Origin: Escherichia phage AV101
DNA length: 64,000 bases
Sequence record: OQ973471.1
Strand: one strand, 5' to 3'
Part shown: positions 754 through 62,766 of the stretch, one piece after another
Position numbering within the stretch: position 1 is the stretch's first letter
Layout: every line of letters begins with the position of its first letter
The notes under the pieces: model-generated
The model's database searches: none
Seen by the model: only the letters and a program-made list of their open reading frames with translations
Told to the model about the DNA's origin: nothing
Made by a program: the position numbers and the translations under genes

Positions 754-1378
754 ATCAAATTTTTTGGCTGTGGCTGACAGTGAAACCTTGGGGCGCTGGG
801 ATGATGCAGTCATGCTGTCTTGGGCACACACCATCGCTGACTTGACCAAGCGTTATACTCTTCAGCAGCTGGTTGAGGAGCGCACGACGTTCATTAAGCT
901 GAATGTCAAAGAGCAGATCGAACTCGGTCGCGTGAAGGACCAGGGGACGGTAGAATGGTGGTTGGGGGCGGGCAAGCGCAACCCGTGTGATGCGGCTCGC
1001 GCCGTCAGTCTGTATCCCAAGGAAGATGACATCTCTATCTTCCAGCTGGCCGATGAAATCCGCAAGGGTTGTCATCGTCTTGGGGTAGACCCGCGCTCGG
1101 TTGACTGGTGTGACCGTAACTTGTTCGATCTGCGCAAGGCTCAACACATCATTGAGGTGACGTGTAAGCAGGACTCCAACGAGCCATGGGATTACCACCA
1201 CACGTTCGACATCGTGAGCTGGCTGAAGGGTGTCGGACAACAGGATCGCTACGCTGGCATCAAGGCGTGGGAACTGGAAGGTATGGTCTATCATGACCCT
1301 CGTTATGATGCGGCGCTTGACTGGCTGCGTATTCAGAAGACCATGGAAGATCTGATGGGGCTGGAGGTTGTGGGATGA
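746..1378 (+). CDS. dexA: DnaQ-like 3'-5' exonuclease (T4 DexA-like)
   Basis: N-terminal AVADSETLG (Exo I DxE) and C-terminal HDPRYDAALD (Exo III) motifs; size 210 aa. Confidence 0.55.
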   Translation: MYKSNFLAVADSETLGRWDDAVMLSWAHTIADLTKRYTLQQLVEERTTFIKLNVKEQIELGRVKDQGTVEWWLGAGKRNPCDAARAVSLYPKEDDISIFQLADEIRKGCHRLGVDPRSVDWCDRNLFDLRKAQHIIEVTCKQDSNEPWDYHHTFDIVSWLKGVGQQDRYAGIKAWELEGMVYHDPRYDAALDWLRIQKTMEDLMGLEVVG

Positions 1379-1677
1379 TTGTATTCACTGTCATCGGTGT
1401 GATCGTAACAGCTGGGGTGTTCGCAGCCATATTGGGCTACCTGTACTTCATGTTCCTTCATCCGTTATTTCAGGCGTTCAGTCTCACGAATTGGTACTTG
1501 GCCTGCCTAAAGGCCGACGGCGGCGTGAACATGGCCTCTCTTCCTTACTGGCGGCTGGTGGCGCATTACTACTCGGTCGGTGGCTGGCCTGGGGAAAGGA
1601 CATGGAACTCTATCGGTGAGTGGTATGGAATAGGTCGATGGCGTATATTCCCTGATGAAGACGATCAAGCCCCGTGA
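1375..1677 (+). CDS. small membrane protein
   Basis: ATGA overlap with upstream stop; N-terminal hydrophobic helix IVFTVIGVIVTAGVFAAILGYLYF. Confidence 0.45.
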   Translation: MIVFTVIGVIVTAGVFAAILGYLYFMFLHPLFQAFSLTNWYLACLKADGGVNMASLPYWRLVAHYYSVGGWPGERTWNSIGEWYGIGRWRIFPDEDDQAP

Positions 1678-11020: not shown

Positions 11021-11268
11021 TTGCGTTCCTCTTCTTTAATAAATTGCAATAACTCTTCCATCAGCCCTTTCTTCTTGATGAACTGTAACACCAGGATGAA
11101 GCGACGGAAGGAGCGGGGGACAACACGATAACCCTTCGCCCAGTAGTTCACAACATTAGAACAATCCAATAAACGAGCCAGCCCAGATTGTGACACCCCG
11201 AGGCTCAGCAGAACCTTGTACATGTACTTCTTGTCATTTACCGGAAGCTCTTTCATTCTTAAACTCAT
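11014..11268 (-). CDS. XRE-type helix-turn-helix protein
   Basis: LLSLGVSQSGLARLLDCSNVVNYWAKG HTH signature. Confidence 0.45.
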   Translation of the reverse strand: MSLRMKELPVNDKKYMYKVLLSLGVSQSGLARLLDCSNVVNYWAKGYRVVPRSFRRFILVLQFIKKKGLMEELLQFIKEEERKC

Positions 11269-11491
11269 GATACTTGTCCGCTAATGTCTTGTAATATTTG
11301 TTAGGATTATACTCCTGTTTGGAATAGTGAAGAGTAAGGGAAGTACTCAGACCTAGGATAATCACGACAACGAGCGCCTTGTGGTTATTGATCTCGGGAA
11401 TAGCTATCCACACCAGCAACAACACGAGCGAGCTGATAATCAAGGACAGCAAGAACGTTAATGTAATCACCAATGCGAATAGCTCGTCCAT
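11234..11491 (-). CDS. small membrane protein
   Basis: Two hydrophobic helices (LVITLTFLLSLIISSLVLLLVWIAI; LVVVIILGLSTSL). Confidence 0.4.
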   Translation of the reverse strand: MDELFALVITLTFLLSLIISSLVLLLVWIAIPEINNHKALVVVIILGLSTSLTLHYSKQEYNPNKYYKTLADKYHEFKNERASGK

Positions 11492-27952: not shown

Positions 27953-28190
27953 CGATTGTGTTCCCCTTACCCGAACCCTTCTTTATCGTACGCAAGACGT
28001 CCTTGAAGCCGTCTGGAGCTGATTGTGGTCCCTTCACCCCAGAGACAATCTTGGGAGCACCCACGATCATTTTAATCTCCCCTCCGCACTCAGTGCAGGG
28101 GTTGGATTCAGGCTCATGGCGATCTGCAATAGATTTACGCAGTGTCATCGCGTTACCACAGCCCTTGCATTGATAATCATACAGCGGCAT
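27945..28190 (-). CDS. zinc-ribbon protein
   Basis: CKGCG...CTECGG two CxxC pairs. Confidence 0.45.
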   Translation of the reverse strand: MPLYDYQCKGCGNAMTLRKSIADRHEPESNPCTECGGEIKMIVGAPKIVSGVKGPQSAPDGFKDVLRTIKKGSGKGNTIDV

Positions 28191-28491
28191 GGAACACCCC
28201 CACGGTTGTCAGCACGAAACGAACCATAATGATAACCAGCAACATCACTGTAGAAAACACTACACGCTTGATCATTTTATCGCGCATGTGGATGAACTGA
28301 TATGAGAGGATAGCCTCGGCCTGTTGATCGGCACGAACGTTCGTGTCACGATGTGGGGACAGTGTGTAGAAGTTGATCTGGTACACATACGCATGAACCA
28401 GAGTGAAGAACGACTTCACCCAGACCAAGACAACCACTAACAACAAAGCGAACGTCAGGAAGTTCGCCAACAACCAATAATCGACCATCAT
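28177..28491 (-). CDS. membrane protein
   Basis: Three hydrophobic helices; 104 aa. Confidence 0.4.
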   Translation of the reverse strand: MMVDYWLLANFLTFALLLVVVLVWVKSFFTLVHAYVYQINFYTLSPHRDTNVRADQQAEAILSYQFIHMRDKMIKRVVFSTVMLLVIIMVRFVLTTVGVFHAAV

Positions 28492-29621: not shown

Positions 29622-30123
29622 TACTTTTCTCCAGTTCATAATCGCGCTCCACAACGTATTGGTAGACACGCATCTTAATATAGTCAGCACTGCCTGATGA
29701 AGACAGCACCATCCATCCACTACTAAGGGCATTCATCTTATATTGACCAACACCCTCTTGAAAATAACTTTTAATCTGTTCCAGCTTTCGCACACGATGA
29801 TAATACGAAATGAGTTCGCCGATGACAATACAATCTGGATAATGCTTTTCCAATGTATTGATGTTGCGGTGAACATATACGGGTAGAACTTCTTCATCGT
29901 CGATAGGGCTGTAGTATGGGTCTACGATGACCACTTGTAGACCATAACGCAGCAGGTCTTTGACACCCAGCCGACAGAACTTATAATCTTCGTGTTTCAT
30001 TGCCACATGGAGGATATTCTCTTTCTTGGCATAATCGGTCAGGAAGATAAAGAAGTCTGTGTTGGGATCGGGATATTGTATAGACAGTTCTTTGCCTATT
30101 TCACTAAAACAAAATCCGCGCAT
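29599..30123 (-). CDS. hypothetical protein
   Basis: 174 aa; GAGGA RBS. Confidence 0.4.
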   Translation of the reverse strand: MRGFCFSEIGKELSIQYPDPNTDFFIFLTDYAKKENILHVAMKHEDYKFCRLGVKDLLRYGLQVVIVDPYYSPIDDEEVLPVYVHRNINTLEKHYPDCIVIGELISYYHRVRKLEQIKSYFQEGVGQYKMNALSSGWMVLSSSGSADYIKMRVYQYVVERDYELEKSNAKRKTR

Positions 30124-39195: not shown

Positions 39196-39990
39196 TTAAC
39201 TGAAACTCTTGTATGCTGCTGCGAGCTTCGCGTCGTACTGGTTCTTGGCATACGCCGGACCATTATAGCGCCGTGCAAACTCAGCCCAGTTCTTGTCCTT
39301 CAGAGCCTGCCAGAGCTTGGCGTCAGCCTTGATGAACTTCACGAATGCCATCAAATGAGCACGTTCTCCTGTCAGGAAGTCGTTGAACATCTCCTTGGCG
39401 TTGGCATATCCACAGACCTGGCAGTTGAATCCCATGATCTGGAAGAGACCGTAAGAGGCGCTCTCGTACGCACAATCCTCATCGATGTTGATCGCTGCAT
39501 GAAGTCGATCCAACTCCGCGTCGCCTCCCGTGTACCCGCCTGCGGAAGGACTGACCAACGTCGGGTACATATGTCCCATGGCATTCGCCCGAGCCTGTCC
39601 GAACTTCGCCATCAGCTTCTTATACATGATGTGGCGCTCAAACAATGTCTTGATCTTACCTGACTTGGTGAAGCCCGTGCCGCGCGACTCAACCTGATTC
39701 ACCGCCTTGACAGAGGCAAGGTCAACACCCAGATCATTAGCAGCATCAATCAGGTCTGACTCAGTTAGATGATCCTGATGGGCGTCTCCGGCGTTGCGAA
39801 TAGCATAGGAGGTCTTTGGACCCACGATACCATCAATGACAAGTCCCGCACCCGCCTGAACCGTCTTGACGGCGTTCTCTGTTGCCTTACCAAAGATACC
39901 ATCAGCGACGAGGGTGAAGCCGATTTTGTTGAGGCTATTCTGAAGTGCCTTCACTTCAGTGCCACGGTTGCCAAGTTTTAGAATGGCCAT
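39196..39990 (-). CDS. endolysin: peptidoglycan-binding domain plus muramidase-like catalytic domain
   Basis: N-terminal PG-binding repeat (LQNSLNKIGF...DGIFGKATENAV...DGIVGPKTSYAI), C-terminal YGLFQIMGFN motif; GGAGG RBS. Confidence 0.65.
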   Translation of the reverse strand: MAILKLGNRGTEVKALQNSLNKIGFTLVADGIFGKATENAVKTVQAGAGLVIDGIVGPKTSYAIRNAGDAHQDHLTESDLIDAANDLGVDLASVKAVNQVESRGTGFTKSGKIKTLFERHIMYKKLMAKFGQARANAMGHMYPTLVSPSAGGYTGGDAELDRLHAAINIDEDCAYESASYGLFQIMGFNCQVCGYANAKEMFNDFLTGERAHLMAFVKFIKADAKLWQALKDKNWAEFARRYNGPAYAKNQYDAKLAAAYKSFS

Positions 39991-39993
39991 AAG

Positions 39994-40024
39994 AAATACC
40001 TCCACAATGAATGCAGAGGTATTT
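39994..40024 (-). promoter_or_regulatory. stem-loop sequestering endolysin RBS
   Basis: 9-bp stem AAATACCTC/GAGGTATTT; the 3' arm on the mRNA contains GGAGG RBS, ATG 4 nt downstream. Confidence 0.4.
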
Positions 40025-40175
40025 AAAGTGAAAGTGAACTACTCGAGAAACTGAGGGAAAACTTTGTTCGGAATGTGGTCAGCAACCCAGAGAGCGCCTA
40101 AAGAGGATTGAATGGCTGCGATCTCCTCCCAAGACCTGATAGGGGGAGTTGTCTCCCCTATGTTACACGTCGGGA

Positions 40176-40664
40176 TTAGGCCAGTTTGCTCACCAGAGCT
40201 TCAACTGCGTCGGCGCTCAGTTTACCCATTTTGACGTATTGAGCTTTTGCTTCGCCGCCAACTGCTTTCACGATGTCGGTGTTGTCGTACCCCTTCTTAG
40301 GGAAGACCATCACAGAGAAGGAACCGTTGTTCAGCGGGTTCAGCTGGATGCGACCTTTACCGACTACGATGGTGCCGTAAGTTTCGGTGTTTGCTTCGAC
40401 AATGTGGATGTCGTGACCCAGGTTTTTCAGCATACCAACTTTGTCGGCAGTCTTAGCAACCACAGCTTTATCAACCACAACCTGCTCTACCAGGGTGAAG
40501 CCGTTAGTCGCTTTCACTTTACCGTTCAGCAGGTTCATGAAGGAAGTTTTGCCACCAGTGAAGCCAGCTGCCTGAGCGATGCGGAACATTTCAACTTTAG
40601 CAACTTCGGTGTTCAGTTCGAAAGAGATGGTGCCGTTGGTGATCAGAGTTTTGGTAGTAGCCAT
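40176..40664 (-). CDS. hypothetical protein, likely abundant
   Basis: Strong GAGGA RBS, structured leader, terminator on both sides; Thr/Val/Gly/Lys-rich. Confidence 0.45.
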   Translation of the reverse strand: MATTKTLITNGTISFELNTEVAKVEMFRIAQAAGFTGGKTSFMNLLNGKVKATNGFTLVEQVVVDKAVVAKTADKVGMLKNLGHDIHIVEANTETYGTIVVGKGRIQLNPLNNGSFSVMVFPKKGYDNTDIVKAVGGEAKAQYVKMGKLSADAVEALVSKLA

Positions 40665-40802
40665 GATGTAATTCCTCATAATGTAGTTGGTTCATTTCAC
40701 TTTTCATTCGGCGGTGTGTTACCGCCCTATGTGAACTATAATAGTGTATCATTATTGAAGAGTAAAGTCTTTTTCAATAAATTTTTAAATAATTTTGAAG
40801 TA

Positions 40803-40829
40803 TTTTAAAAGGCCTCATTCGACGAGGCC
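40803..40829 (-). terminator. intrinsic terminator
   Basis: Stem GGCCTC/GAGGCC with 7-nt loop; T-run on minus strand. Confidence 0.55.
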
Positions 40830-40858
40830 TGGAGGGAGGTGATGTGAAGTAAAAAGTT

Positions 40859-48025: not shown

Positions 48026-48639
48026 TATCTTGTCCTCTTCAGTTTCTCTATTGTGTGCCTGTTCATGGCGATCACCTGAGGATCTACCTCGGAGATGGTC
48101 CGGCCTTCGAAGGACACACATTTCTGAAGATATTTAGCTTTCTTCACGACGTCGGCAGCATAAGCGTTCGATGCAGGATTACGGGCGAAGCCAGCATTGT
48201 AAGAGGAGAGGGATTTGCGGATATTCTGATTGTGATAGGTCAGCCAGAACTGCATCTCATCGAGGGCGGCTTGCGCGGCATATTCTTGGTCGGTCAGCAA
48301 CTTTATGGCGACATTGGCATAGCACTTGCGATTCTTACAACCTTCGCGATCACCAACTGTCTTCACCTTGTTCTGAAAGGCTCCCATGTTGGCCGCCTTG
48401 AGGCCGTATCGCATTGACACTACATCTTCGCCAGCGCGGCTCTCACGCCAAGATATGGCGGCCAGAGTGTAGCCAAGATCTTGTGTCTTGCCCACGTGAT
48501 AGGCGGTTGCCATCGTATTAAGTTGTTGCTCAGAGAAATTATAAACACATTGACTTGTATTTTGGGAAGCGTGCACATTCCCGCTGGCAATGGTAAAGGT
48601 CACGGACAAGGCCATGGCCTTCAACGTTGTCATCGTCAT
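48025..48639 (-). CDS. secreted lytic-transglycosylase-like protein
   Basis: N-terminal signal peptide MTMTTLKAMALSVTFTIASGNVHA; SLT-like ISWRESR...GAFQ...YNAGF. Confidence 0.45.
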   Translation of the reverse strand: MTMTTLKAMALSVTFTIASGNVHASQNTSQCVYNFSEQQLNTMATAYHVGKTQDLGYTLAAISWRESRAGEDVVSMRYGLKAANMGAFQNKVKTVGDREGCKNRKCYANVAIKLLTDQEYAAQAALDEMQFWLTYHNQNIRKSLSSYNAGFARNPASNAYAADVVKKAKYLQKCVSFEGRTISEVDPQVIAMNRHTIEKLKRTR

Positions 48640-48735
48640 GATGGCGTTCCTTATGTTTGTCGACTTGCAGCTCGATTGAGCCTCCTGACAGGGGTTAAAA
48701 GATAAAGGGCACGTGATATTTAGTGCCCTTCAGCC

Positions 48736-49020: not shown

Positions 49021-49331
49021 ACGTTTGTCTCAGATGTTCGGTAAAGGATTTACCCAGCTTGCGGAATAGTTTAATACGACCAATGACTTTGACGTAAACA
49101 TCTCCGTGGCAGGGGCGCGGCTTACACCAGCACCCCAATACCTTCCCGTCAAGATCAAGGAGTTCATCCTCAGTGATATCCCCCTTCAATCAGGCGCACA
49201 TACAGGTCGTCCTCAAACAGTTCGATACAGACGCCTCGTCCATGGTCTTTGACCTCAAACGGGTTTCCCCATTTACCAGGCCGACCAATGTAAACGTCAT
49301 ATGGCTCCTTCTTGAAGTGGACGACTTTCAT
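49001..49331 (-). pseudogene. DUF4326-like gene interrupted by a 1-nt frameshift in a C5/G5 homopolymer
   Basis: N-terminal half (MKVVHFKKEPYDVYIGRPGKWGNPF...) in one frame stops at 49170-49172; C-terminal half (LDLDGKVLGCWCKPRPCHGDV) in the +1 frame; shift at homopolymer 49180-49184. Confidence 0.5.
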
Positions 49332-49492
49332 TTCAGGATTTGACCTGCAAGTAGATAACAGAACCAGACAGAGAACCCGAGATACCCCAGTGCTTTCAGG
49401 TAGTTTTTCCTTTCGACTTCACGAGAAAACGCAACGATGTCAATGATGCATGCAAAGACCAGGATTGCGAGTTTAATTTGTTCGTAGTTCAT
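49328..49492 (-). CDS. 54-aa small hydrophobic protein (not in ORF track)
   Basis: ATG just downstream of gp46 stop; stop overlaps next ATG (ATGA); translation MNYEQIKLAILVFACIIDIVAF... Confidence 0.35.
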   Translation of the reverse strand: MNYEQIKLAILVFACIIDIVAFSREVERKNYLKALGYLGFSVWFCYLLAGQILK

Positions 49493-49494
49493 GA

Positions 49495-51840
49495 TCAATC
49501 CTTCTTGATAACTTCAGTCAGGCCGTTTCGCAGGCCGTAGCGAATGTTGTGTTGGAAGTATTCCTGGAACTCCTGCTCACGCTGGCTGATGACAAACAGG
49601 TTGTTCCCACCGAACTTATGCTTCAACATCTCAACCGATTCCTGCACCCCGCGCTCGCTCATGTTCTCAAGGATCTCGTCCAACACGAACAGGTTACATT
49701 GTACAGACGCCTTGAGGTTAGCCACATCGCGCAGAGCTAATGTCACAGCCAGGTTCAGACGACTGCGCTGACCAGTAGACAGGGAGAAGATGCTCTGTCC
49801 TTTGCGGCCTGCTGCGCTCATGGTGATCTCAAAGGTATCGTCAACAACGATGTCCAAGAACATGTTGAGGGCTTCAAGATACTCGTTGATCTTGCTATTG
49901 AGGAATGGAAGATACAGGGCGATGATACGCGCCTTGGTCTGGTCATCTTTCAAGAAGAACAGCAGGTGCTGTAAGTCCTGGAGTTCCTGGTCGGCATCCT
50001 CGCGGCGCTGGTATAGATCCTCCAGTTCACCCTCCAACGCAGCGATAGAGTTCTCTAGGTCGGTGGTAGGTGTTGGCTGTACAGCCAGTTTACGCTCCAG
50101 ATCGGCAATAGACGCCACGAGAAGAGCACGACGGGCTTTCAGCTCGGCGATCTTATCATCGACGGCTTTAATCCCGCTGACGGCATTCTCTCGCTTCTGT
50201 TGCAGCGACGCAGTGATGTCTTCAAAACGAACGTTCAGCGCCTTGCGGATGTCAAGGATCTTCTGTTGACATTCACGGTTCAGGGAGTTGCATTCAATCG
50301 TGGCAGCGTCATGGAACCCCTGAATATCACGACGCAGCTGCTTGATGTTGTCAACGATTTCGTCGGCCTTCTTGCGCATTGCATCCAGTTCAGCATCCAA
50401 CACAGCAATGTCAGCAACCAGCTTGTCGTCCTGGGCTTTGTGGTCATCGATCAGGACATTGATATCGGCGGTAACTTTGTCCAGTTGATCTAACTTCGAC
50501 TGTAGTTCCTGGATCTGAGGATTGTACTCACTCTCAATCCGCGCCTTGGTGTCATCAGACACCAGTTGGGTACATGTTGGGCAAGTCCCCATGTCGTGGA
50601 AGCGCTTGATGGCCGACTGATGTCCATCCATTTCGGTCTGGAACTTGATGCGGAAGTTCTCACCCTGCTGGCGGCGCTGAATAGCAGCGTTCAGGGCGTC
50701 CAGGTTTGTGTTGCGCTCGGTGAGCAGGGTGTTCTTGCGTTCGGCCACTGTAAAGGCGCGGTCACGCAAGACCTGAAGATCATGCTCCGCAGTAGACACT
50801 TCGATGCGCTCATAATCATCGGCCTTTTCCTGAGCGACATCCTTCACCGCCTGGATCTTGGCATCAAAGTCTTTCTTGACAGCCTCGATTTCCACCATGG
50901 ATTCATCATGCAGGCGGCTTTCTACCGTCTTCATTTCCTGGCTGGCTTCGAACTCAACCGCAGTGAGGCGGGTGCGCTCTTCGTTCTGGGCGGCGATGTC
51001 AGCATCCAAGGAATTCAGGGCTTCCTGTTGCTGTACAAGGATATCGGCCGATTGCTGTTGGATCAGGGCGTTGGATTGCTCGATCTGCTGAAGCTGCGTC
51101 TTCTTGTTGGTGTGGTCAACAACCTTCAACGCACATTCATTCGCGATCGTGTCCAGCTTTTCGTTCGCTTTCTTGATGGATGCCTTGACATCTTCGTTCA
51201 TCAGGCTGAAGAAGCCCAAGTCCCAGATAGTCTCCACCATGGCGCGGCGGTCGGCTGTGTACATCTCCGTGAACGGAATGAACTTCTCTTTGCCCAGCAC
51301 CAGAGAGTTCTCAAACATCTTCTGGTCCACGCCGATGAGGTTCACGATGTACTTGTTCATGTCGGCTTTGGCTGCTTCGTTATCGATCTGCAACCACTTG
51401 CCGTCCACCATCTGGTAGACTTCAACAAAGTCAGGTTTAATACCACGGCGAACCTTCCATTCGTTACCACGGCAGGCAAACTCCACCTCACCCACACATT
51501 CCTTGCGGCTTTGTGAGTTTACCAGGCCTGCCTTCTTCTCCTTCTTACTGTACGTGTCGTTGTACAGTACGAAAAACAGCAGCCATACCAGCATCGTGGA
51601 TTTACCCGCGCCGTTGTCATCAGACGTAACAAGGGTGGCCGGGTTGCGCTGATAATCAATCTCCATGAACTGATTGCCGATGGAGCGGAAGTTCTTGGCG
51701 CGGCCTTTGCGGAAGGTCAGTTTGTGTGTAACAACGTTACGCACTTCAAATGGGACTTCAACCTCGACCGGGGCGTCGGCTTCCTTCAAAAGATTACCAA
51801 ATTTGGTCAAGATATCTGTGCTCTGAGTCATGTTATGCAT
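49495..51840 (-). CDS. recombination endonuclease subunit gp46 (Rad50/SbcC-like)
   Basis: Walker A DDNGAGKST, long coiled coil with zinc hook CPTC, signature SLSTGQRSRL, Walker B LFVLDE. Confidence 0.85.
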   Translation of the reverse strand: MHNMTQSTDILTKFGNLLKEADAPVEVEVPFEVRNVVTHKLTFRKGRAKNFRSIGNQFMEIDYQRNPATLVTSDDNGAGKSTMLVWLLFFVLYNDTYSKKEKKAGLVNSQSRKECVGEVEFACRGNEWKVRRGIKPDFVEVYQMVDGKWLQIDNEAAKADMNKYIVNLIGVDQKMFENSLVLGKEKFIPFTEMYTADRRAMVETIWDLGFFSLMNEDVKASIKKANEKLDTIANECALKVVDHTNKKTQLQQIEQSNALIQQQSADILVQQQEALNSLDADIAAQNEERTRLTAVEFEASQEMKTVESRLHDESMVEIEAVKKDFDAKIQAVKDVAQEKADDYERIEVSTAEHDLQVLRDRAFTVAERKNTLLTERNTNLDALNAAIQRRQQGENFRIKFQTEMDGHQSAIKRFHDMGTCPTCTQLVSDDTKARIESEYNPQIQELQSKLDQLDKVTADINVLIDDHKAQDDKLVADIAVLDAELDAMRKKADEIVDNIKQLRRDIQGFHDAATIECNSLNRECQQKILDIRKALNVRFEDITASLQQKRENAVSGIKAVDDKIAELKARRALLVASIADLERKLAVQPTPTTDLENSIAALEGELEDLYQRREDADQELQDLQHLLFFLKDDQTKARIIALYLPFLNSKINEYLEALNMFLDIVVDDTFEITMSAAGRKGQSIFSLSTGQRSRLNLAVTLALRDVANLKASVQCNLFVLDEILENMSERGVQESVEMLKHKFGGNNLFVISQREQEFQEYFQHNIRYGLRNGLTEVIKKD

Positions 51841-57768: not shown

Positions 57769-58431
57769 TTACACCTCCACCGCGTGAGACTTCAGGAGTT
57801 CATCAATCTCTTTCTGTCCCATGTATGAGAACGGGGTGCGCTGGTAGAACGCCCAGAGTACTAACTGGACAACAGCACGGGAACGGGTTTCGGCCGTCAT
57901 CACCAGGCCACTGAAATGAGGAGACTCAGCTGTCCATTGTATCTCTTCGCCCAGGTCTTGATTACAGGTCACCGAGATGCGGAACTTGTTGCACAGATTG
58001 TCGACTTCTTTGTACGCATCGGTAGACACACGAAGTTGTTCCGCATGCACCCACGGAGTTGTGATGATTCTTTCACCCATCACTTTATCAGAGATAAACC
58101 AATCAATACATTCGGTAAACTCACTAAAATGGTCGATACGATAAATGCAGTCTCCCCCTTCCATAGAACGCATGGCATGATAGCGAGCGTCAATTTCGTT
58201 GTTATGCATAGCGTTGAAGTCGATGAACACGCGACGCGCCAGCACAACATCTTCTGGTTGAAGTGCCAGGAAATCGTTCAGGCGGCTATAATGGAGGACA
58301 TTGGAACCGTCGTGGCCACGTGTGCAATATGCGTAATGGCTACCGATACGGGCGTGGGCAATATAAGACAACGGGGCGAAGAATAATCCGTCAGGATCAG
58401 GACCGACGATAATAGAATAAAGTTTTTCCAT
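57769..58431 (-). CDS. hypothetical protein
   Basis: Start ATG 58431 preceded by GAGACTATATC cassette. Confidence 0.4.
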   Translation of the reverse strand: MEKLYSIIVGPDPDGLFFAPLSYIAHARIGSHYAYCTRGHDGSNVLHYSRLNDFLALQPEDVVLARRVFIDFNAMHNNEIDARYHAMRSMEGGDCIYRIDHFSEFTECIDWFISDKVMGERIITTPWVHAEQLRVSTDAYKEVDNLCNKFRISVTCNQDLGEEIQWTAESPHFSGLVMTAETRSRAVVQLVLWAFYQRTPFSYMGQKEIDELLKSHAVEV

Positions 58432-58487
58432 GATATAGTCTCTCAAATGAAAGGGTAGCTTTATGATAAGCCGCCCGAGGTTATTGA

Positions 58488-59393: not shown

Positions 59394-59720
59394 TTAACCC
59401 GAAACTTTATTTTGAAATCCGACAAAGTCCTGGGCAATCCCCCGGCAATACATCAGGTCTTTCTTCGTTTGTGGACTGTTGTCAGCCGCAGTCAGCATCA
59501 TGGGAAGATCCAGCGCATTCTCTATCTGATCAACACTGAACAGATCAAGGCGCTTCAGCTCTCCCTCAAAGTCAGACAGGAGGATAGATGTGTCTTTGTC
59601 ATCTGGGTGGAACTGCTGATACGTCTCCATCCATGCCACACATGTGTTCAGTTTGGACGGTGGCGCAGCGTTTACACACCCGGCTATCAGTACCAACAAG
59701 AGCAGGATTTTACATTTCAT
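59394..59720 (-). CDS. putative lipoprotein
   Basis: Signal peptide with lipobox-like LIAGC (MKCKILLLLVLIAGCVNA); coupled to upstream gene (TGATG). Confidence 0.5.
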   Translation of the reverse strand: MKCKILLLLVLIAGCVNAAPPSKLNTCVAWMETYQQFHPDDKDTSILLSDFEGELKRLDLFSVDQIENALDLPMMLTAADNSPQTKKDLMYCRGIAQDFVGFQNKVSG

Positions 59721-60406
59721 CACTCGTTCTCCTTCATCATATTGTCGCAGTCAACACGAGTCTGCTGGAGTTCGCGCGACATGCGAGGATCATCAAGGTT
59801 CACGCTCAGATTCGTGGACAGGTCTTTCAGACCGTTCTGAACCCTGTCTTCAAAGTAATAATCGTTCTCAACCAACCAGGCTCTGAGACCGAGAGCGCGA
59901 GTGCGCCATTCCTTCTTCAGGACGCGATCAGAGGTCTGCGTAGCGCTGTATTCGAATACTTTGATGCACTGGTTGCCATCGTTGATGAGGTTCAGGTGAC
60001 GGCGGCCTATCTGCACACCCTTCTGTAATGCCGGAGAAGGGAGCGAACGGCACTGTCTTACGGTCATTCGGCCTTGGGTGCCCATACGCCCAGTCATGAT
60101 TAAATCGCCAGCCTCCATGCCTCCACGGTTAAATTCGTCGTCATTGAGGTAGCCCTTGAGGTTATAGGCTCCCTGTTTGTAACGGTTGAACTCAATTCCG
60201 GCATTGACGACAGCGGTGAAGACGTTGCCTGTGTTCCAGAGTTCAGCGAAGTTCTCTATGGAACCGGACTTGTCGATGGCAACCGCCTGGGAGAACCCAG
60301 CACAATAGGAAAGGTCGGACCACAGTTTATCACCTGTGGAGTTCAGCTTGGCAGCGGCGGGTAATGCCAGACCAGCCAGCACAACCCCGAGGATTAAACG
60401 TTTCAT
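59720..60406 (-). CDS. secreted (periplasmic) protein
   Basis: ATG 60406 after AAGGAGA RBS; signal peptide MKRLILGVVLAGLALPAAA. Confidence 0.5.
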   Translation of the reverse strand: MKRLILGVVLAGLALPAAAKLNSTGDKLWSDLSYCAGFSQAVAIDKSGSIENFAELWNTGNVFTAVVNAGIEFNRYKQGAYNLKGYLNDDEFNRGGMEAGDLIMTGRMGTQGRMTVRQCRSLPSPALQKGVQIGRRHLNLINDGNQCIKVFEYSATQTSDRVLKKEWRTRALGLRAWLVENDYYFEDRVQNGLKDLSTNLSVNLDDPRMSRELQQTRVDCDNMMKENE

Positions 60407-60485
60407 GGTGATTCTCCTTATTTCATTGGATGAAATGATAGGCGGCTCACCATGTTGAGTAAAGGGATTCAATAAACTATCGTAT

Positions 60486-60935
60486 TCAGAAACGGGTATC
60501 GCTGACCGTTCTGTATCGCACACCCTGAAACTGTTTAGCGAGTTTAACAAATTCCATCGCTGGCAAATCAACTTTGTAGACCTTCATGCGCTGTTTGCCG
60601 TCCATGTTCAACGCAGCGACAAATCGGTGAGAACCGTCAACAACGTAATTGTCAGAAGATACCCAAACTCGACCCATAGGTTTCTTATTTCTGATCTGCT
60701 TCATAATCTTCCAGACCTTCATTTTATTGATTTCGTTCTGGGTAAGACGAAGTATTTTGATGGGCACTTGCACAGCATCTATGGACACGCCGTTGTCTTC
60801 AAGATATTTGTGAAAATCTTCTTGTTTGTCGGCATCGATTTGTGGCATAGAAGAACGCGAAAGCCCGAGGTTCCCAACAGGAATCCTCAGGCCGTTAATG
60901 ATGTTCAACCAGTCAATAAAAGATGTAAGGAACAT
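60486..60935 (-). CDS. ParB/sulfiredoxin-like nuclease-domain protein, tentative
   Basis: VPIKILRLTQNEIN and VVDGSHRFVAA resemble the ParB N-terminal domain DGHHR motif. Confidence 0.35.
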   Translation of the reverse strand: MFLTSFIDWLNIINGLRIPVGNLGLSRSSMPQIDADKQEDFHKYLEDNGVSIDAVQVPIKILRLTQNEINKMKVWKIMKQIRNKKPMGRVWVSSDNYVVDGSHRFVAALNMDGKQRMKVYKVDLPAMEFVKLAKQFQGVRYRTVSDTRF

Positions 60936-60967
60936 GACACACCTCGGGATATAGGGTTATCCCTTAG

Positions 60968-61159
60968 TTAGCGCATCCATCGATCCTTTCTCTCTTTCTC
61001 CTTGCGTTCGCGACGTTTCTGGTCGGATCGGAATAACCAATAGAAGAAGTTCCCACCCAAGATGAAAACCACCGCGATTATTACTAGGACACCCTTCACA
61101 ATTTCCCAAACCAATTCTTTATCCAAATTATACCTCGTCTTCTTCAGGTCCACCGTCAA
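60968..61159 (-). CDS. small single-pass membrane protein with basic C-terminus
   Basis: TM helix IVKGVLVIIAVVFILGGNFFYWLF then KRRERKEKERK; non-ATG (TTG) start so uncertain. Confidence 0.3.
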   Translation of the reverse strand: MTVDLKKTRYNLDKELVWEIVKGVLVIIAVVFILGGNFFYWLFRSDQKRRERKEKERKDRWMR

Positions 61160-61415
61160 TCAGGATACGAGCGGTGTCGAAAGTTTCCCCGCCCGTGTTC
61201 AGCAGCTTAGTCAGATCGTCAAGATATCGAACCGTGCCAAGATCAGATGACCGCGATATAAACTCCAGCATACCATACAACGCTGTTTGGAATCGGCTGT
61301 TATCGATATCGTTCTTTATTACCATCAGGCGCAAGATGTTCTCTGACTGAGTATGGCCAACACACGCCTTGTCTCTGATCATCTCCTTGATAGAACTTCT
61401 CTCTGATGGTGTCAT
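61128..61415 (-). CDS. hypothetical protein
   Basis: ATGA coupling with upstream gene. Confidence 0.4.
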   Translation of the reverse strand: MTPSERSSIKEMIRDKACVGHTQSENILRLMVIKNDIDNSRFQTALYGMLEFISRSSDLGTVRYLDDLTKLLNTGGETFDTARILIDGGPEEDEV

Positions 61416-61785
61416 AACGTACCCCCGACAGAGATCAAGAACTCTTCTTGCATGGTCTTGACCGGGTGGTGGTTGCGGGTTTCGATCATGAAGCCCCAGC
61501 CGCCGTCGGCGACGTTGCCAAAGGTCTTGACGCCAAAGGACTTCGTCCCGTTGGAGCAGGAATAGATGTCCAGGACGTATGGGCTACCCTGATTGTCGAT
61601 CCCACGATTCACGTCGTCTGATACGCAGCGCTCAATCATCTTCCCGTTCTTATACAGAACGAGGTCTTGGCCATACGCCTTGAAAGCATAAACACCGTTG
61701 GTAGACACTCCGGTGATGACAGGAGGGGCGGAAACAGCAGCAAAGGAAGCGCCTAGCAGGGCAACAGCGAGGATTAACTTTTTCA
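61412..61785 (-). CDS. secreted protein
   Basis: Start ATG about 61785; signal peptide MKKLILAVALLGASFAAVSA; two Cys pairs. Confidence 0.45.
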
Positions 61786-61832
61786 TGATATAGTCTCTTG
61801 GTTTCAAATGGGCGGGGTAATCATACCCCGCC
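61786..61832 (-). repeat. cassette variant with GGCGGGGTA-ATCA-TACCCCGCC hairpin + CATTTGAAA + GAGACTATATC-ATG
   Basis: Hairpin and flanks repeated at 62346-62392. Confidence 0.6.
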
Positions 61833-61838
61833 GTGGGT

Positions 61839-62345
61839 TTATAGAGTAACAAGTGATACGGTAAAAACCATCGTCCCGTCTGTTGCCATTTTTCTTGAAA
61901 CTGGTATGACGCGAGGCTGGCAGAATATCCATTCTTTCTCCATGGACGCCAAGTCCAGCATATCCATTTCTGATTCATCGCCTTTGTTCACAAATTTTTC
62001 TAGAGAACCATAGACATTAAGCCCCTCCGGGAGTCTGTTTCGATGTTTGTAACAAATGCGGGCAACAGCTTTGGTTCCGTACGATTTAGAAAATTTTTTG
62101 GCCACATGCTTCAGTTCACTGAAGCTAAGACAAGAGTCCCATGTCTGGAACATGTCGCCTCGTTCAAACATTATCTCTAAACGCGCAACGTCCTCTTTAG
62201 GCAACCCACGATAAAGTGTGGTCGTCTGTGGTTCGCGCAATTCTTGCACCAGATCGCGGACGGCAGGGGAAACAGTACCGGGGCGCATGATGTGGGACTT
62301 ATCATGGACGAGGTAAAATAAATCTTGAATTTGTTGATCGGTCAT
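61839..62345 (-). CDS. candidate mono-ADP-ribosyltransferase (R-S-E type), tentative
   Basis: Spaced TLYRG (Arg), SCLSFS (S-x-S) and DESEMD (E-x-E) in order and spacing reminiscent of T4 Alt/Mod-type ARTs. Confidence 0.3.
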   Translation of the reverse strand: MTDQQIQDLFYLVHDKSHIMRPGTVSPAVRDLVQELREPQTTTLYRGLPKEDVARLEIMFERGDMFQTWDSCLSFSELKHVAKKFSKSYGTKAVARICYKHRNRLPEGLNVYGSLEKFVNKGDESEMDMLDLASMEKEWIFCQPRVIPVSRKMATDGTMVFTVSLVTL

Positions 62346-62392
62346 GGTATAGTTCCTGCATTTCAAATAGACGGGGTAATCATACCCCGCCC
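62346..62392 (-). repeat. cassette variant copy
   Basis: GACGGGGTAATCATACCCCGCC hairpin + TATTTGAAATGCAGGAACTATACC-ATG. Confidence 0.6.
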
Positions 62393-62404: not shown

Positions 62405-62644
62405 TTAACTGATGTGCTTCAGAAGAGCGAAGAGGATCGCGGCCTTGGCCTTTACCTTTCCCACGATGCCTGTCTCGACATCAACTTCTTCAGCAACCCA
62501 CTCTTTTCCCTTCTTGCTGATGATAACGTCACGGCGCTGTGCGTAGACTTCTTTGGTCGCATACACACGGCGGAACCCTTTAGCGCGGAGCAATCCCCAA
62601 TTGCGATCAATTTCTACTGAGGTTTCTACCATTTTGTTCTTCAT
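62405..62644 (-). CDS. hypothetical protein
   Basis: 79 aa. Confidence 0.4.
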   Translation of the reverse strand: MKNKMVETSVEIDRNWGLLRAKGFRRVYATKEVYAQRRDVIISKKGKEWVAEEVDVETGIVGKVKAKAAILFALLKHIS

Positions 62645-62766
62645 GTTATAATCTTACCTTTCAACCCGGTGAACCCATCGTTCGCCAGTTATTGAATAAT
62701 AGGACATTCCTTAGAGGAAGTAAACCCCTAAAAGTAAAAATCCCCAACGTTTGTTGGGGACTTCTG

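Follow-up and report, generated by a model that had tools for sequence, protein, structure and literature searches.

Two-component spanins, exemplified by Rz/Rz1 of phage lambda and by the 'separated' pair PseT.3/PseT.2 of T4, bridge the periplasm and fuse both membranes once the endolysin has cleared the peptidoglycan. Their features are an i-spanin with an uncleaved type II inner-membrane transmembrane domain and long coiled-coil helices in the periplasm, an o-spanin with a conserved lipobox, and the adjacency of the two genes. Other phage proteins directed to the envelope include Spackle (Sp, gp61.3) and Imm of T4, whose genes are early, the lipoprotein Llp of T5, and the T4 antiholin RI with its holin T. 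Here, we compare with these systems a cluster of six genes, g1 to g6, all on the minus strand at 59394-61786 of a stretch of 64,000 nucleotides from Escherichia phage AV101 (sequence record OQ973471.1), which is referred to as the window. Attention is given above all to g2 and g1, genes already known as hypothetical proteins or as 'spanins'. According to our analysis, the 2.4-kb region is best explained, at about an even chance, as a mosaic that comprises no fewer than three units and lies in an early-transcribed part of an Ackermannviridae genome, and g2-g1 is the only conserved functional unit of the cluster.

The window belongs to an Ackermannviridae (Vi1-like) phage: the 3.4 kb around the cluster is 98% identical to Escherichia phage vB_EcoM-ZQ1 and 91 to 97% identical to other Ackermannviridae (Agtrevirus, Kuttervirus), with 231 phage records matched. 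Phage therapy and biocontrol make wide use of this family, to which the relatives of Vi1, CBA120, and LIMEstone belong. The pair g2-g1 is found in all Ackermannviridae genera examined, and the g2 family is confined to the Ackermannviridae (281 phage records). When 1.84 billion representatives were scanned exhaustively with HMMER, 10 proteins had E<=0.001, with four non-fragmentary clusters at 50% identity among them. The only additions from a profile search were short forms of g2 limited to the N-domain (123 to 176 amino acids [aa]), such as those of Serratia phages 3M and phiMAM1 and Erwinia phages Bue1 and phiEa2809; the C-terminal half of g2 is absent in two genera. The stop codon of g2 overlaps the start codon of g1 by 1 nt (TGATG) in the window, and such an overlap was seen in every relative in which both genes were located, namely Marshall, CECAV_050, ZQ1, LIMEstone1, L005, L006, phiMAM1, and Bue1.

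Both genes are under strong purifying selection, with ratios of nonsynonymous to synonymous substitution rates (dN/dS) of 0.01 to 0.09 for g2 and of 0.02 to 0.07 for mature g1, the latter obtained from closer relatives, dS being saturated against distant ones. The amount of amino acid change is about three times greater in g1 than in g2. Synonymous divergence also separates the pair from its upstream neighbor. The g3 gene of the window is of the Kuttervirus type, with a dS of 0.13 to 0.15 against the related loci L007 and L010 and of 2.2 against LIMEstone1, whereas g2-g1 is of the Marshall/LIMEstone type, the dS of g2 being 0.59 against LIMEstone1 and 1.26 against L007. These opposite patterns place a recombination junction between g3 and g2 (approximately 60407-60485) and therefore indicate that g2-g1 is inherited as a unit.

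The g2 protein starts with MKRLILGVVLAGLALPAAA|KLN, a classical Sec signal peptide spanning residues 1 to 19, with a 16-residue h-region, a helix-breaking Pro-6, and the invariant residues P16, A17, and A19 (P-A-x-A|K). Remote homologues (21 to 35% identity; P0068, P0069, P0075 to P0080, phiMAM1, and Bue1) have unrelated h-regions, and all of them have a canonical cleavage site, with examples such as …SAWS|E, …HASA|A, …TANA|G, …TAHA|T, …VAHA|A, …NAVA|Q, and …NAQA|R. By the same sequence rules, the g2 signal peptide is most likely cleaved after Ala19. The charge of g2 is near neutral, and its sequence matches PHROG 4260, a family of unknown function, with E=2e-154. The AlphaFold (AF2) model of g2 (predicted local distance difference test score [pLDDT] of 83.8 and predicted template modeling score of 0.73) is globular, all-alpha, and composed of two domains. 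Its nine helices, the longest of 25 residues, form a compact bundle and not a rod; residues 1 to 20 are disordered, and no helix is present in residues 1 to 22. The alignment of 16 close homologues alone gave a pLDDT of 33, which rose to 83.8 when remote homologues were added. A fold search detected no structural relatives of this model outside its own family, and the predicted fold of g2 is thus an orphan one. The four invariant Cys residues of g2 and the two of g1 are kept even in remote relatives, which fits oxidized periplasmic proteins; the sequence suggests that those of g2 probably form two disulfides.

The N terminus of g1, MKCKILLLLVLIAGC, contains in this phage the lipobox LIAGC, with Cys15 and Val at position +2. 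It is followed by a mature domain of approximately 88 to 93 aa with two invariant Cys residues (C27 and C92). The protein is acidic and matches PHROG 3843 with E=9e-55. Among g1 homologues, grouped into 36 full-length clusters at 90% identity, a strict lipobox is present in 6, all of which are in the immediate clade of this phage. In terms of loci, 5 of 26 carry a strict lipobox. The allele found in the window is present in ZQ1, CECAV_050, Marshall, and L009, and P46FS4 has the looser LMAGC. The remaining homologues possess a signal-peptidase I site of the form A-x-A|xP in a signal peptide devoid of Cys, and they comprise those of the main Kuttervirus clade, Taipeivirus, Limestonevirus (LIMEstone1), Miltonvirus, Nezavisimistyvirus, phiMAM1, Bue1, and two remote metagenomic relatives. 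What is invariant in the family alignment is the Ala at position -1 of the A-x-A site, the Pro at position +2, and the two Cys residues of the mature part, not the lipobox Cys. The g1 gene is the only convincing lipoprotein gene in this type of genome. Its lipobox allele is common to Agtrevirus-like phages and to the Kuttervirus Marshall.

The spacer between g3 and g2 contains a sigma-70-type promoter of the form TTTATTGAAT-N3-TTTACT-N17-TATCAT (60476-60435, minus strand). In the Taipeivirus loci, both hexamers are kept (TTTACT and TACTAT) and the spacer sequence has diverged. The class TT[TG]AC[ATC]-N16-18-TANNNT has 15 matches in the window, 9 of which fall in intergenic DNA (about 9% of the sequence), and 6 are correctly oriented upstream of minus-strand genes. 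A second promoter of this type, upstream of g8 (62724-62696), coincides with the site that the authors of LIMEstone1 annotated as a 'putative early promoter', and it probably drives transcription of g8 through g3. The apparent late-promoter motif of the family, (a)CTAAATA, lies upstream of the head and tail genes of ZQ1; CTAAATA occurs eight times in the window and not once within 57-64 kb. On the basis of these motifs, g2-g1 would be transcribed early by the host RNA polymerase, and early-type promoters together with the lack of the late motif in the region fit an early envelope function such as exclusion.

Further observations were made on these motifs. Members of the class with the form TTTACT-N17-TAtxAT, often preceded by TTATTGAA, are at 60435-60463, 62696-62724, 47332, 40738, 23392, and 15422 on the minus strand and at 29987 on the plus strand. 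The sites of (a)CTAAATA in the window include 5448(+), 48131(-), 43455(-), and 48717(-). The T4-type late promoter TATAAATA was set aside, as it is not enriched in the window and the motif of the family is CTAAATA; a search for CTAAATACCC alone was uninformative.

Taken together, these data define a periplasmic pair present throughout the family, which we think has about even prospects of being an early-expressed periplasmic heterocomplex acting on the envelope. The two genes, g2 and g1, would be a bicistronic operon transcribed from a separate sigma-70 promoter of the early type. The g2 protein would be exported by Sec to yield a soluble, two-domain periplasmic protein of 209 residues with four Cys residues. 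The g1 protein, translated by coupling to g2, would be exported as well, and most members of the family would have it in the periplasm in soluble form, with approximately 85 residues and two Cys residues. In the sub-lineage of this phage, a shortened signal peptide would have created the lipobox, and g1 is probably tethered to the outer membrane. From early in infection, g2 and g1 would assemble into a stoichiometric periplasmic complex, which may shield the envelope of the already infected cell by binding a family-specific partner, either from outside or in the periplasm. The tail lysozyme or the hub of superinfecting sibling phages would be examples of such a partner, in analogy to T4 Spackle. 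The restriction of the pair to one family and the strong constraint on it suggest that it binds a phage component peculiar to the family and not some general structure of the host. A family-specific partner and early expression in turn make protection of the infected cell against sibling phages, by Spackle-like neutralization or by resistance to lysis from without, our leading guess, albeit a tentative one to which we give roughly one-third of the probability. Apart from this and the lysis roles considered below, the remaining probability goes to some other periplasmic function. The g2-g1 pair is a concrete candidate for self-exclusion or for an unconventional lysis step.

The resemblance to Spackle and Imm would consist in the mode of export and in the predicted timing. 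Like Sp, g1 is small and helical and has a Sec signal peptide for export to the periplasm; these proteins form phage-lineage-specific sets, and g2-g1 has export signals, a conserved sigma-70 promoter predicted to be early, and no late motif nearby. The difference is that g2-g1 consists of two coupled proteins, one of them of 209 residues. Profile searches against PDB sequences at E<=10, in which Spackle entries are expected to be included, gave no relevant match to Sp or Imm, and the PHROG families differ. With T5 Llp and other receptor-masking phage lipoproteins, g1 of this sub-lineage would share early expression and the character of a probable outer-membrane lipoprotein; unlike in Llp, however, the family as a whole does not keep the lipidation of g1, no gene for a receptor-binding protein adjoins it, and the sequences are not similar. 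The T4 pair of antiholin RI and holin T likewise couples a small secreted protein to a larger one, which is hydrophobic near its N terminus and has some 200 residues in its periplasmic domain. The g2-g1 pair differs from it in having no sequence or fold similarity in the PDB, in the promoter being of the early type, and in g2 having a cleavage site and no cytoplasmic N terminus.

Several points weigh against a protective complex acting early. No protein of the cluster resembles Sp, Imm, Llp, RI, or the defense and exclusion entries of PADLOC, Pfam, or the PDB. A literature search for Ackermannviridae transcriptomes returned nothing relevant, and the early promoters are deduced from the conservation of motifs. 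The cleavage of g2 is predicted by sequence rules, and g2 may instead retain an uncleaved signal anchor. Exclusion genes are often accessory, and the core nature of g2-g1, together with strong purifying selection, would also suit an essential lysis function. Such a role is attractive for the sole conserved periplasmic pair of a family in which neither a spanin nor a holin has been recognized (PMC6139136, PMC9686305).

The most probable of the alternatives is that g2-g1 constitutes a non-canonical, anchor-free system for outer-membrane disruption or lysis control, filling the role of a spanin (or of an antiholin) without bridging the membranes. Besides the family-wide conservation of the pair and the gap in the lysis inventory of the family (PMC9686305), it would accord with the tolerance of lipid anchoring of g1 in one clade and with the endolysin. 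The latter, encoded at 39196-40005, some 20 kb away, is the sole recognizable lysis gene; it combines PG_binding_1 and muramidase domains, lacks a signal sequence, and is cytoplasmic and unlinked to the pair, as in T4. However, the promoter of g2-g1 is of the early type with no late-promoter motif nearby, and if the two proteins were soluble in the periplasm from an early time, something would have to trigger them, and no such trigger is evident. Moreover, g1 is acidic and g2 near neutral, they are not cationic or amphipathic like disruptin, and no similarity to T4 RI or T was found in the PDB. We consider this alternative unlikely, and its stronger form, in which the Ackermannviridae use g2-g1 to breach or control the outer envelope layers without a membrane anchor, more unlikely still. 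If the latter were true, the pair would add to spanins and the cationic 'disruptin' peptides a third way of disrupting the outer membrane, and the lipidated g1 of this phage would be an evolutionary intermediate toward a tethered system.

That g2 and g1 are a canonical two-component spanin is what the databases state. The homologues Marshall_94 and Marshall_95 of g2 and g1 are annotated as i-spanin and o-spanin, the name 'Rz-like spanin' is given to g1 by RefSeq and PHROG 3843, and in UniRef the homologues of g2 appear as 'I-spanin'; we take the name of PHROG 3843 to derive from the annotations of its members. The spanin census by Kongari et al. of 2018 counts the two Marshall proteins as a 'separated' spanin; each forms a singleton family there, and no periplasmic length in that data set exceeds theirs (PMC6139136). 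The same census, though, places Maynard, Vi01, SFP10, CBA120, ECML-4, PhaxI, AG3, and Dickeya RC-2014 on its spanin-less list (PMC6139136). It therefore contradicts itself within one phage family, and the label is bioinformatic only and inconsistent. The conflict is accounted for by the finding that only the Marshall-type allele of g1, limited to a sub-lineage, looks like a lipoprotein, so that one family member is counted as positive and its siblings as spanin-less; this explanation of the contradictory entries is new, as are the failure of the spanin label across the family and the definition of a family-wide periplasmic pair with an orphan predicted fold in g2.

When the pair is held against spanins feature by feature, some of the likeness is real in this phage: the genes are adjacent and overlap by 1 nt, they encode two envelope-targeted proteins and are unlinked to the endolysin gene as in T4, both proteins have periplasmic Cys residues, g1 has a perfect lipobox with Val at +2, and there is no other candidate in the family, g1 being its sole convincing lipoprotein gene. 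Across the family, the lipobox is missing from 30 of the 36 g1 clusters. In place of a type II anchor, g2 has a short h-region and a conserved predicted signal-peptidase I site, and the periplasmic part of its model is a globular nine-helix bundle without the coiled coil of an i-spanin, in line with the census tables, where the homologue from Marshall has 35% helix and a Pepcoil count of 0 coiled coils (PMC6139136). The C-terminal half of g2, moreover, is missing in two genera, and the only promoter is of the early type. Pfam, NCBIfam, and PHROG searches gave no homology to the characterized spanins Rz/Rz1, PseT.3/.2, and LysB/C, and a T4 omics paper does not mention spanins. A unimolecular spanin of the T1 gp11 type does not fit either, as the C terminus of g1, …RGIAQDFVGFQNKVSG, is not hydrophobic and its sole hydrophobic segment comprises residues 1 to 17. 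Since adjacency of the genes is the only defining feature that the family shares, we do not file g2-g1 as a spanin, and we deem a canonical spanin very unlikely. The 'i-spanin' and 'Rz-like spanin' labels propagated on hundreds of genomes rest on features that the family does not share. The sequence-only reading of this DNA, which had been made without database searches, overlooked that the pair is annotated publicly with this lysis function.

That reading had instead treated the 2.4-kb cluster in its entirety as a candidate module for superinfection exclusion or envelope remodelling. Its description of the parts is largely borne out: the lipoprotein signal LIAGC is present in g1 (IAGC, Cys15), the two classical signal peptides are those of g2 and g6, and the single-pass membrane protein with a basic tail is g4, which has one transmembrane (TM) segment and 11 Lys/Arg in its 20 tail residues. 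The clustering is also real, since 4 of the 6 genes encode a hydrophobic export or membrane segment, compared with 10 of 89 among greedy open reading frame (ORF) calls elsewhere in the window (one-sided Fisher test, p=0.004). The genes were said to be mostly translationally coupled, which holds for three of the five junctions, g2/g1, g6/g5 (ATGA, 4-nt overlap), and g5/g4 (TAA-T-TTG), whereas g4/g3 and g3/g2 are separated by spacers of 32 and 79 nt, the latter holding the promoter. The envelope-directed character of the region can therefore be retained, as it encodes two proteins secreted by Sec, one that is probably a lipoprotein, and one that crosses the membrane once. A single module is, in addition, in keeping with the early type of the promoters and with the same neighborhood of related phages, which encodes more proteins of these kinds, among them small TM proteins and, in L005 and Bue1, a lipoprotein of the Band_7 type. 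The idea of one module fails, however, on the parts and their histories. The g3 product is a virion protein without an export signal and g5 is cytoplasmic; g3 is inherited apart from g2-g1, and g4, g6, and g7 are accessory, so that the units differ in evolutionary history and in pattern of presence and absence; and the region is divided by two promoters and a conserved leader. We regard a single module as highly improbable. Scans of the Pfam, NCBIfam, and PADLOC libraries with the cluster proteins gave no significant match, and PDB sequence and profile searches with g1, g2, g3, and g6 returned nothing relevant.

In the same neighborhood, phiMAM1 and Bue1 have a gene named 'superinfection exclusion'. 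It lacks an export signal, had no match among eleven proteins of the window (g0 to g8 and two genes downstream of g0), and was not used as evidence. The slot downstream of g1 in distant Ackermannviridae-like phages is occupied by a Band_7/SPFH lipoprotein (LLTGC or LLAGC) or by a Phage_VG64 lipoprotein-like protein, at 7237-8028 in L005, 4759-5538 in L027 (Bue1), and 5782-6189 in L006. These further envelope proteins in the same slot suggest a hot spot for exported accessory genes.

The features of the region are collected in Table 1. The genome has a T4-like layout with dispersed lysis genes, and early and middle functions (helicase, HU-like protein, RNase H, gp55, and gp46/47) flank the cluster.

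Table 1. Genes and regulatory elements of the g1-g8 region in the window
Feature	Position	Strand	Description
g1	59394-59720	-	108 aa, exported, lipobox IAGC
g2	59720-60406	-	228 aa, Sec-secreted
Putative sigma-70 early-type promoter of g2-g1	60435-60476	-	Identified by motif
g3	60486-60935	-	149 aa, no export signal, DGSHR motif
Hairpin of the g3 leader	60946-60963	-	6 bp, conserved
g4	60968-61126	-	52 aa, one TM segment, basic tail
g5	61128-61415	-	95 aa, acidic, no export signal
g6	61412-61786	-	124 aa, Sec signal peptide
50-nt direct repeat, copy 1	61783-61832	-	Identified by repeat search
g7	61839-62345	-	168 aa, ADP-ribosyltransferase-like; beyond the range of the sequence-only reading
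50-nt direct repeat, copy 2, upstream of g7	62342-62391	-	Identified by repeat search
g8	62405-62644	-	Second early-type promoter upstream
Second putative sigma-70 early-type promoter	62696-62724	-	TTTACT-N17-TATTAT

A second unit would consist of g3 alone, highly conserved, weakly ParB-like, unrelated to g2-g1, and packaged in virions. No other gene of the region is as well conserved, with 62 to 71% identity in remote relatives compared with 27 to 47% for g2 and g1, and its DGSHR motif is invariant among homologues. The ParB-like nature that had been assigned to it from sequence is echoed by this DGxHR motif, by a length of about 150 aa, and by weak matches to the ParB/sulfiredoxin-fold 'ParB-like nuclease' domains (ParBc, ParBc_2): PHROG 1033 with E=1.2e-3 and, in one of seven homologues, Pfam ParBc_2 with E=0.081. 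These scores, however, do not reach the curated thresholds; no Pfam match passed the cut-off, and no PDB sequence match was obtained. The statement that none of the genes resembles a structural one does not hold for g3, as its homologue ORF101 of LIMEstone1, annotated as 'confirmed structural protein', is a virion protein confirmed by mass spectrometry, and such packaging is a further difference from the ParB-like domains. We conclude that g3 is a cytoplasmic or virion protein and not part of an envelope module. The gene has a conserved leader, in which a hairpin (GGGATA-loop-TATCCC) lies directly 5' of the ribosome-binding site (RBS). The 40-nt leader at 60936-60975 folds at -13.0 kcal/mol, and the hairpin belongs to a conserved block, CTAACTAAGGGATAA..., which begins at the stop codon of the upstream gene, whatever that gene is. 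The block, CTAACTAAGGGATAAC…TATCCCGAGG, is kept across the genera examined irrespective of which gene is upstream. One possibility is that g3 acts as a nuclease or CTPase that is packaged and whose translation is controlled separately.

The third unit would be made of g4, g6, and g7, exchangeable accessory genes whose products are, in this order, a small protein of the membrane, a secreted one, and one that resembles ADP-ribosyltransferases; the presence of these genes was counted in 24 related loci with the flank in view. The best start of g4 is the TTG at 61126, with the Shine-Dalgarno sequence GAGG; the alternative TTG at 61159 would give 63 aa. The g4 protein, of predicted topology N-out/C-in, matches PHROG 14464 ('membrane protein'), and divergent single-TM, basic-tailed proteins occupy its position in Taipeivirus. 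The g6 protein, present in 12 of 24 loci, has the N terminus MKKLILAVALLGASFAAVSA|PP (AVSA|PP), typical of a Sec signal peptide, and two Cys residues; its Taipeivirus homologues have an AHA|D site, and no PDB sequence match was found for it. In between, g5 is widely present and fast-evolving (dN/dS 0.16 to 0.29).

The g7 protein matches PHROG 832 ('RNA polymerase ADP-ribosylase') with E=2.5e-15 and is found in 6 of 24 loci. Its cassette (approximately 560 bp) is absent from many close relatives, as judged by matches at 85% coverage, and is flanked by the two copies of the 50-nt direct repeat, each consisting of a 9-bp stem-loop, GGCGGGGTA-TGAT-TACCCCGCC, followed by ATTTGAAA and then by the RBS/start region. 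No match of this kind is expected by chance, and the repeat folds at -19.6 kcal/mol. The absence of the cassette from close relatives suggests gain and loss via the repeats, and g7 was likely gained or lost by recombination between these repeated regulatory stem-loops, an arrangement that we liken to the PeSL cassettes of T4-type phages.

The least probable proposal is that g4 is the missing holin of the family and that g4 and g2-g1 form a dispersed lysis cluster: a single TM segment with a highly charged basic C terminus as in small holins, a Pfam Phage_holin_2_4 match (E=0.061), and the lack of a known holin in Kuttervirus would speak for it, but that match is not significant, g4 occurs in only 11 of 24 loci and is absent from the main Kuttervirus clade and LIMEstone1, its operon is of the early type, and the window has other, multi-TM candidates (11234-11491 and 28177-28491). 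The small holin gp17.5 of T7 is comparable to g4 in architecture.

Those two candidates are encoded on the minus strand and have 85 aa with three TM segments (11234-11491, PHROG 12914) and 104 aa with two TM segments (28177-28491); two further small hydrophobic proteins are encoded at 49328-49498 (-) and 1375-1677 (+). As no holin is annotated in the family and the endolysin has no signal sequence, one of the small hydrophobic proteins may be the missing holin.

With regard to the origin of the secreted proteins, the stretches coding for the signal peptides of g2 (60377-60407, MKRLILGVVLAG) and g6 (61757-61787, MKKLILAVALLG) are 77% identical over 31 nt, and the RBS/start region of g6, AGAGACTATATCATG, is repeated at 58424-58443. 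These likenesses hint at a shuffling of translation-initiation and signal-peptide cassettes. A tRNA scan of the whole window detected none. Two stretches without an ORF call in the greedy gene model, 40006-40858 (853 nt) and 48122-48735 (614 nt), are unusually long, and in the former there are AT-rich TTATTGAA/TTCAATAA repeats and a promoter of the early type.

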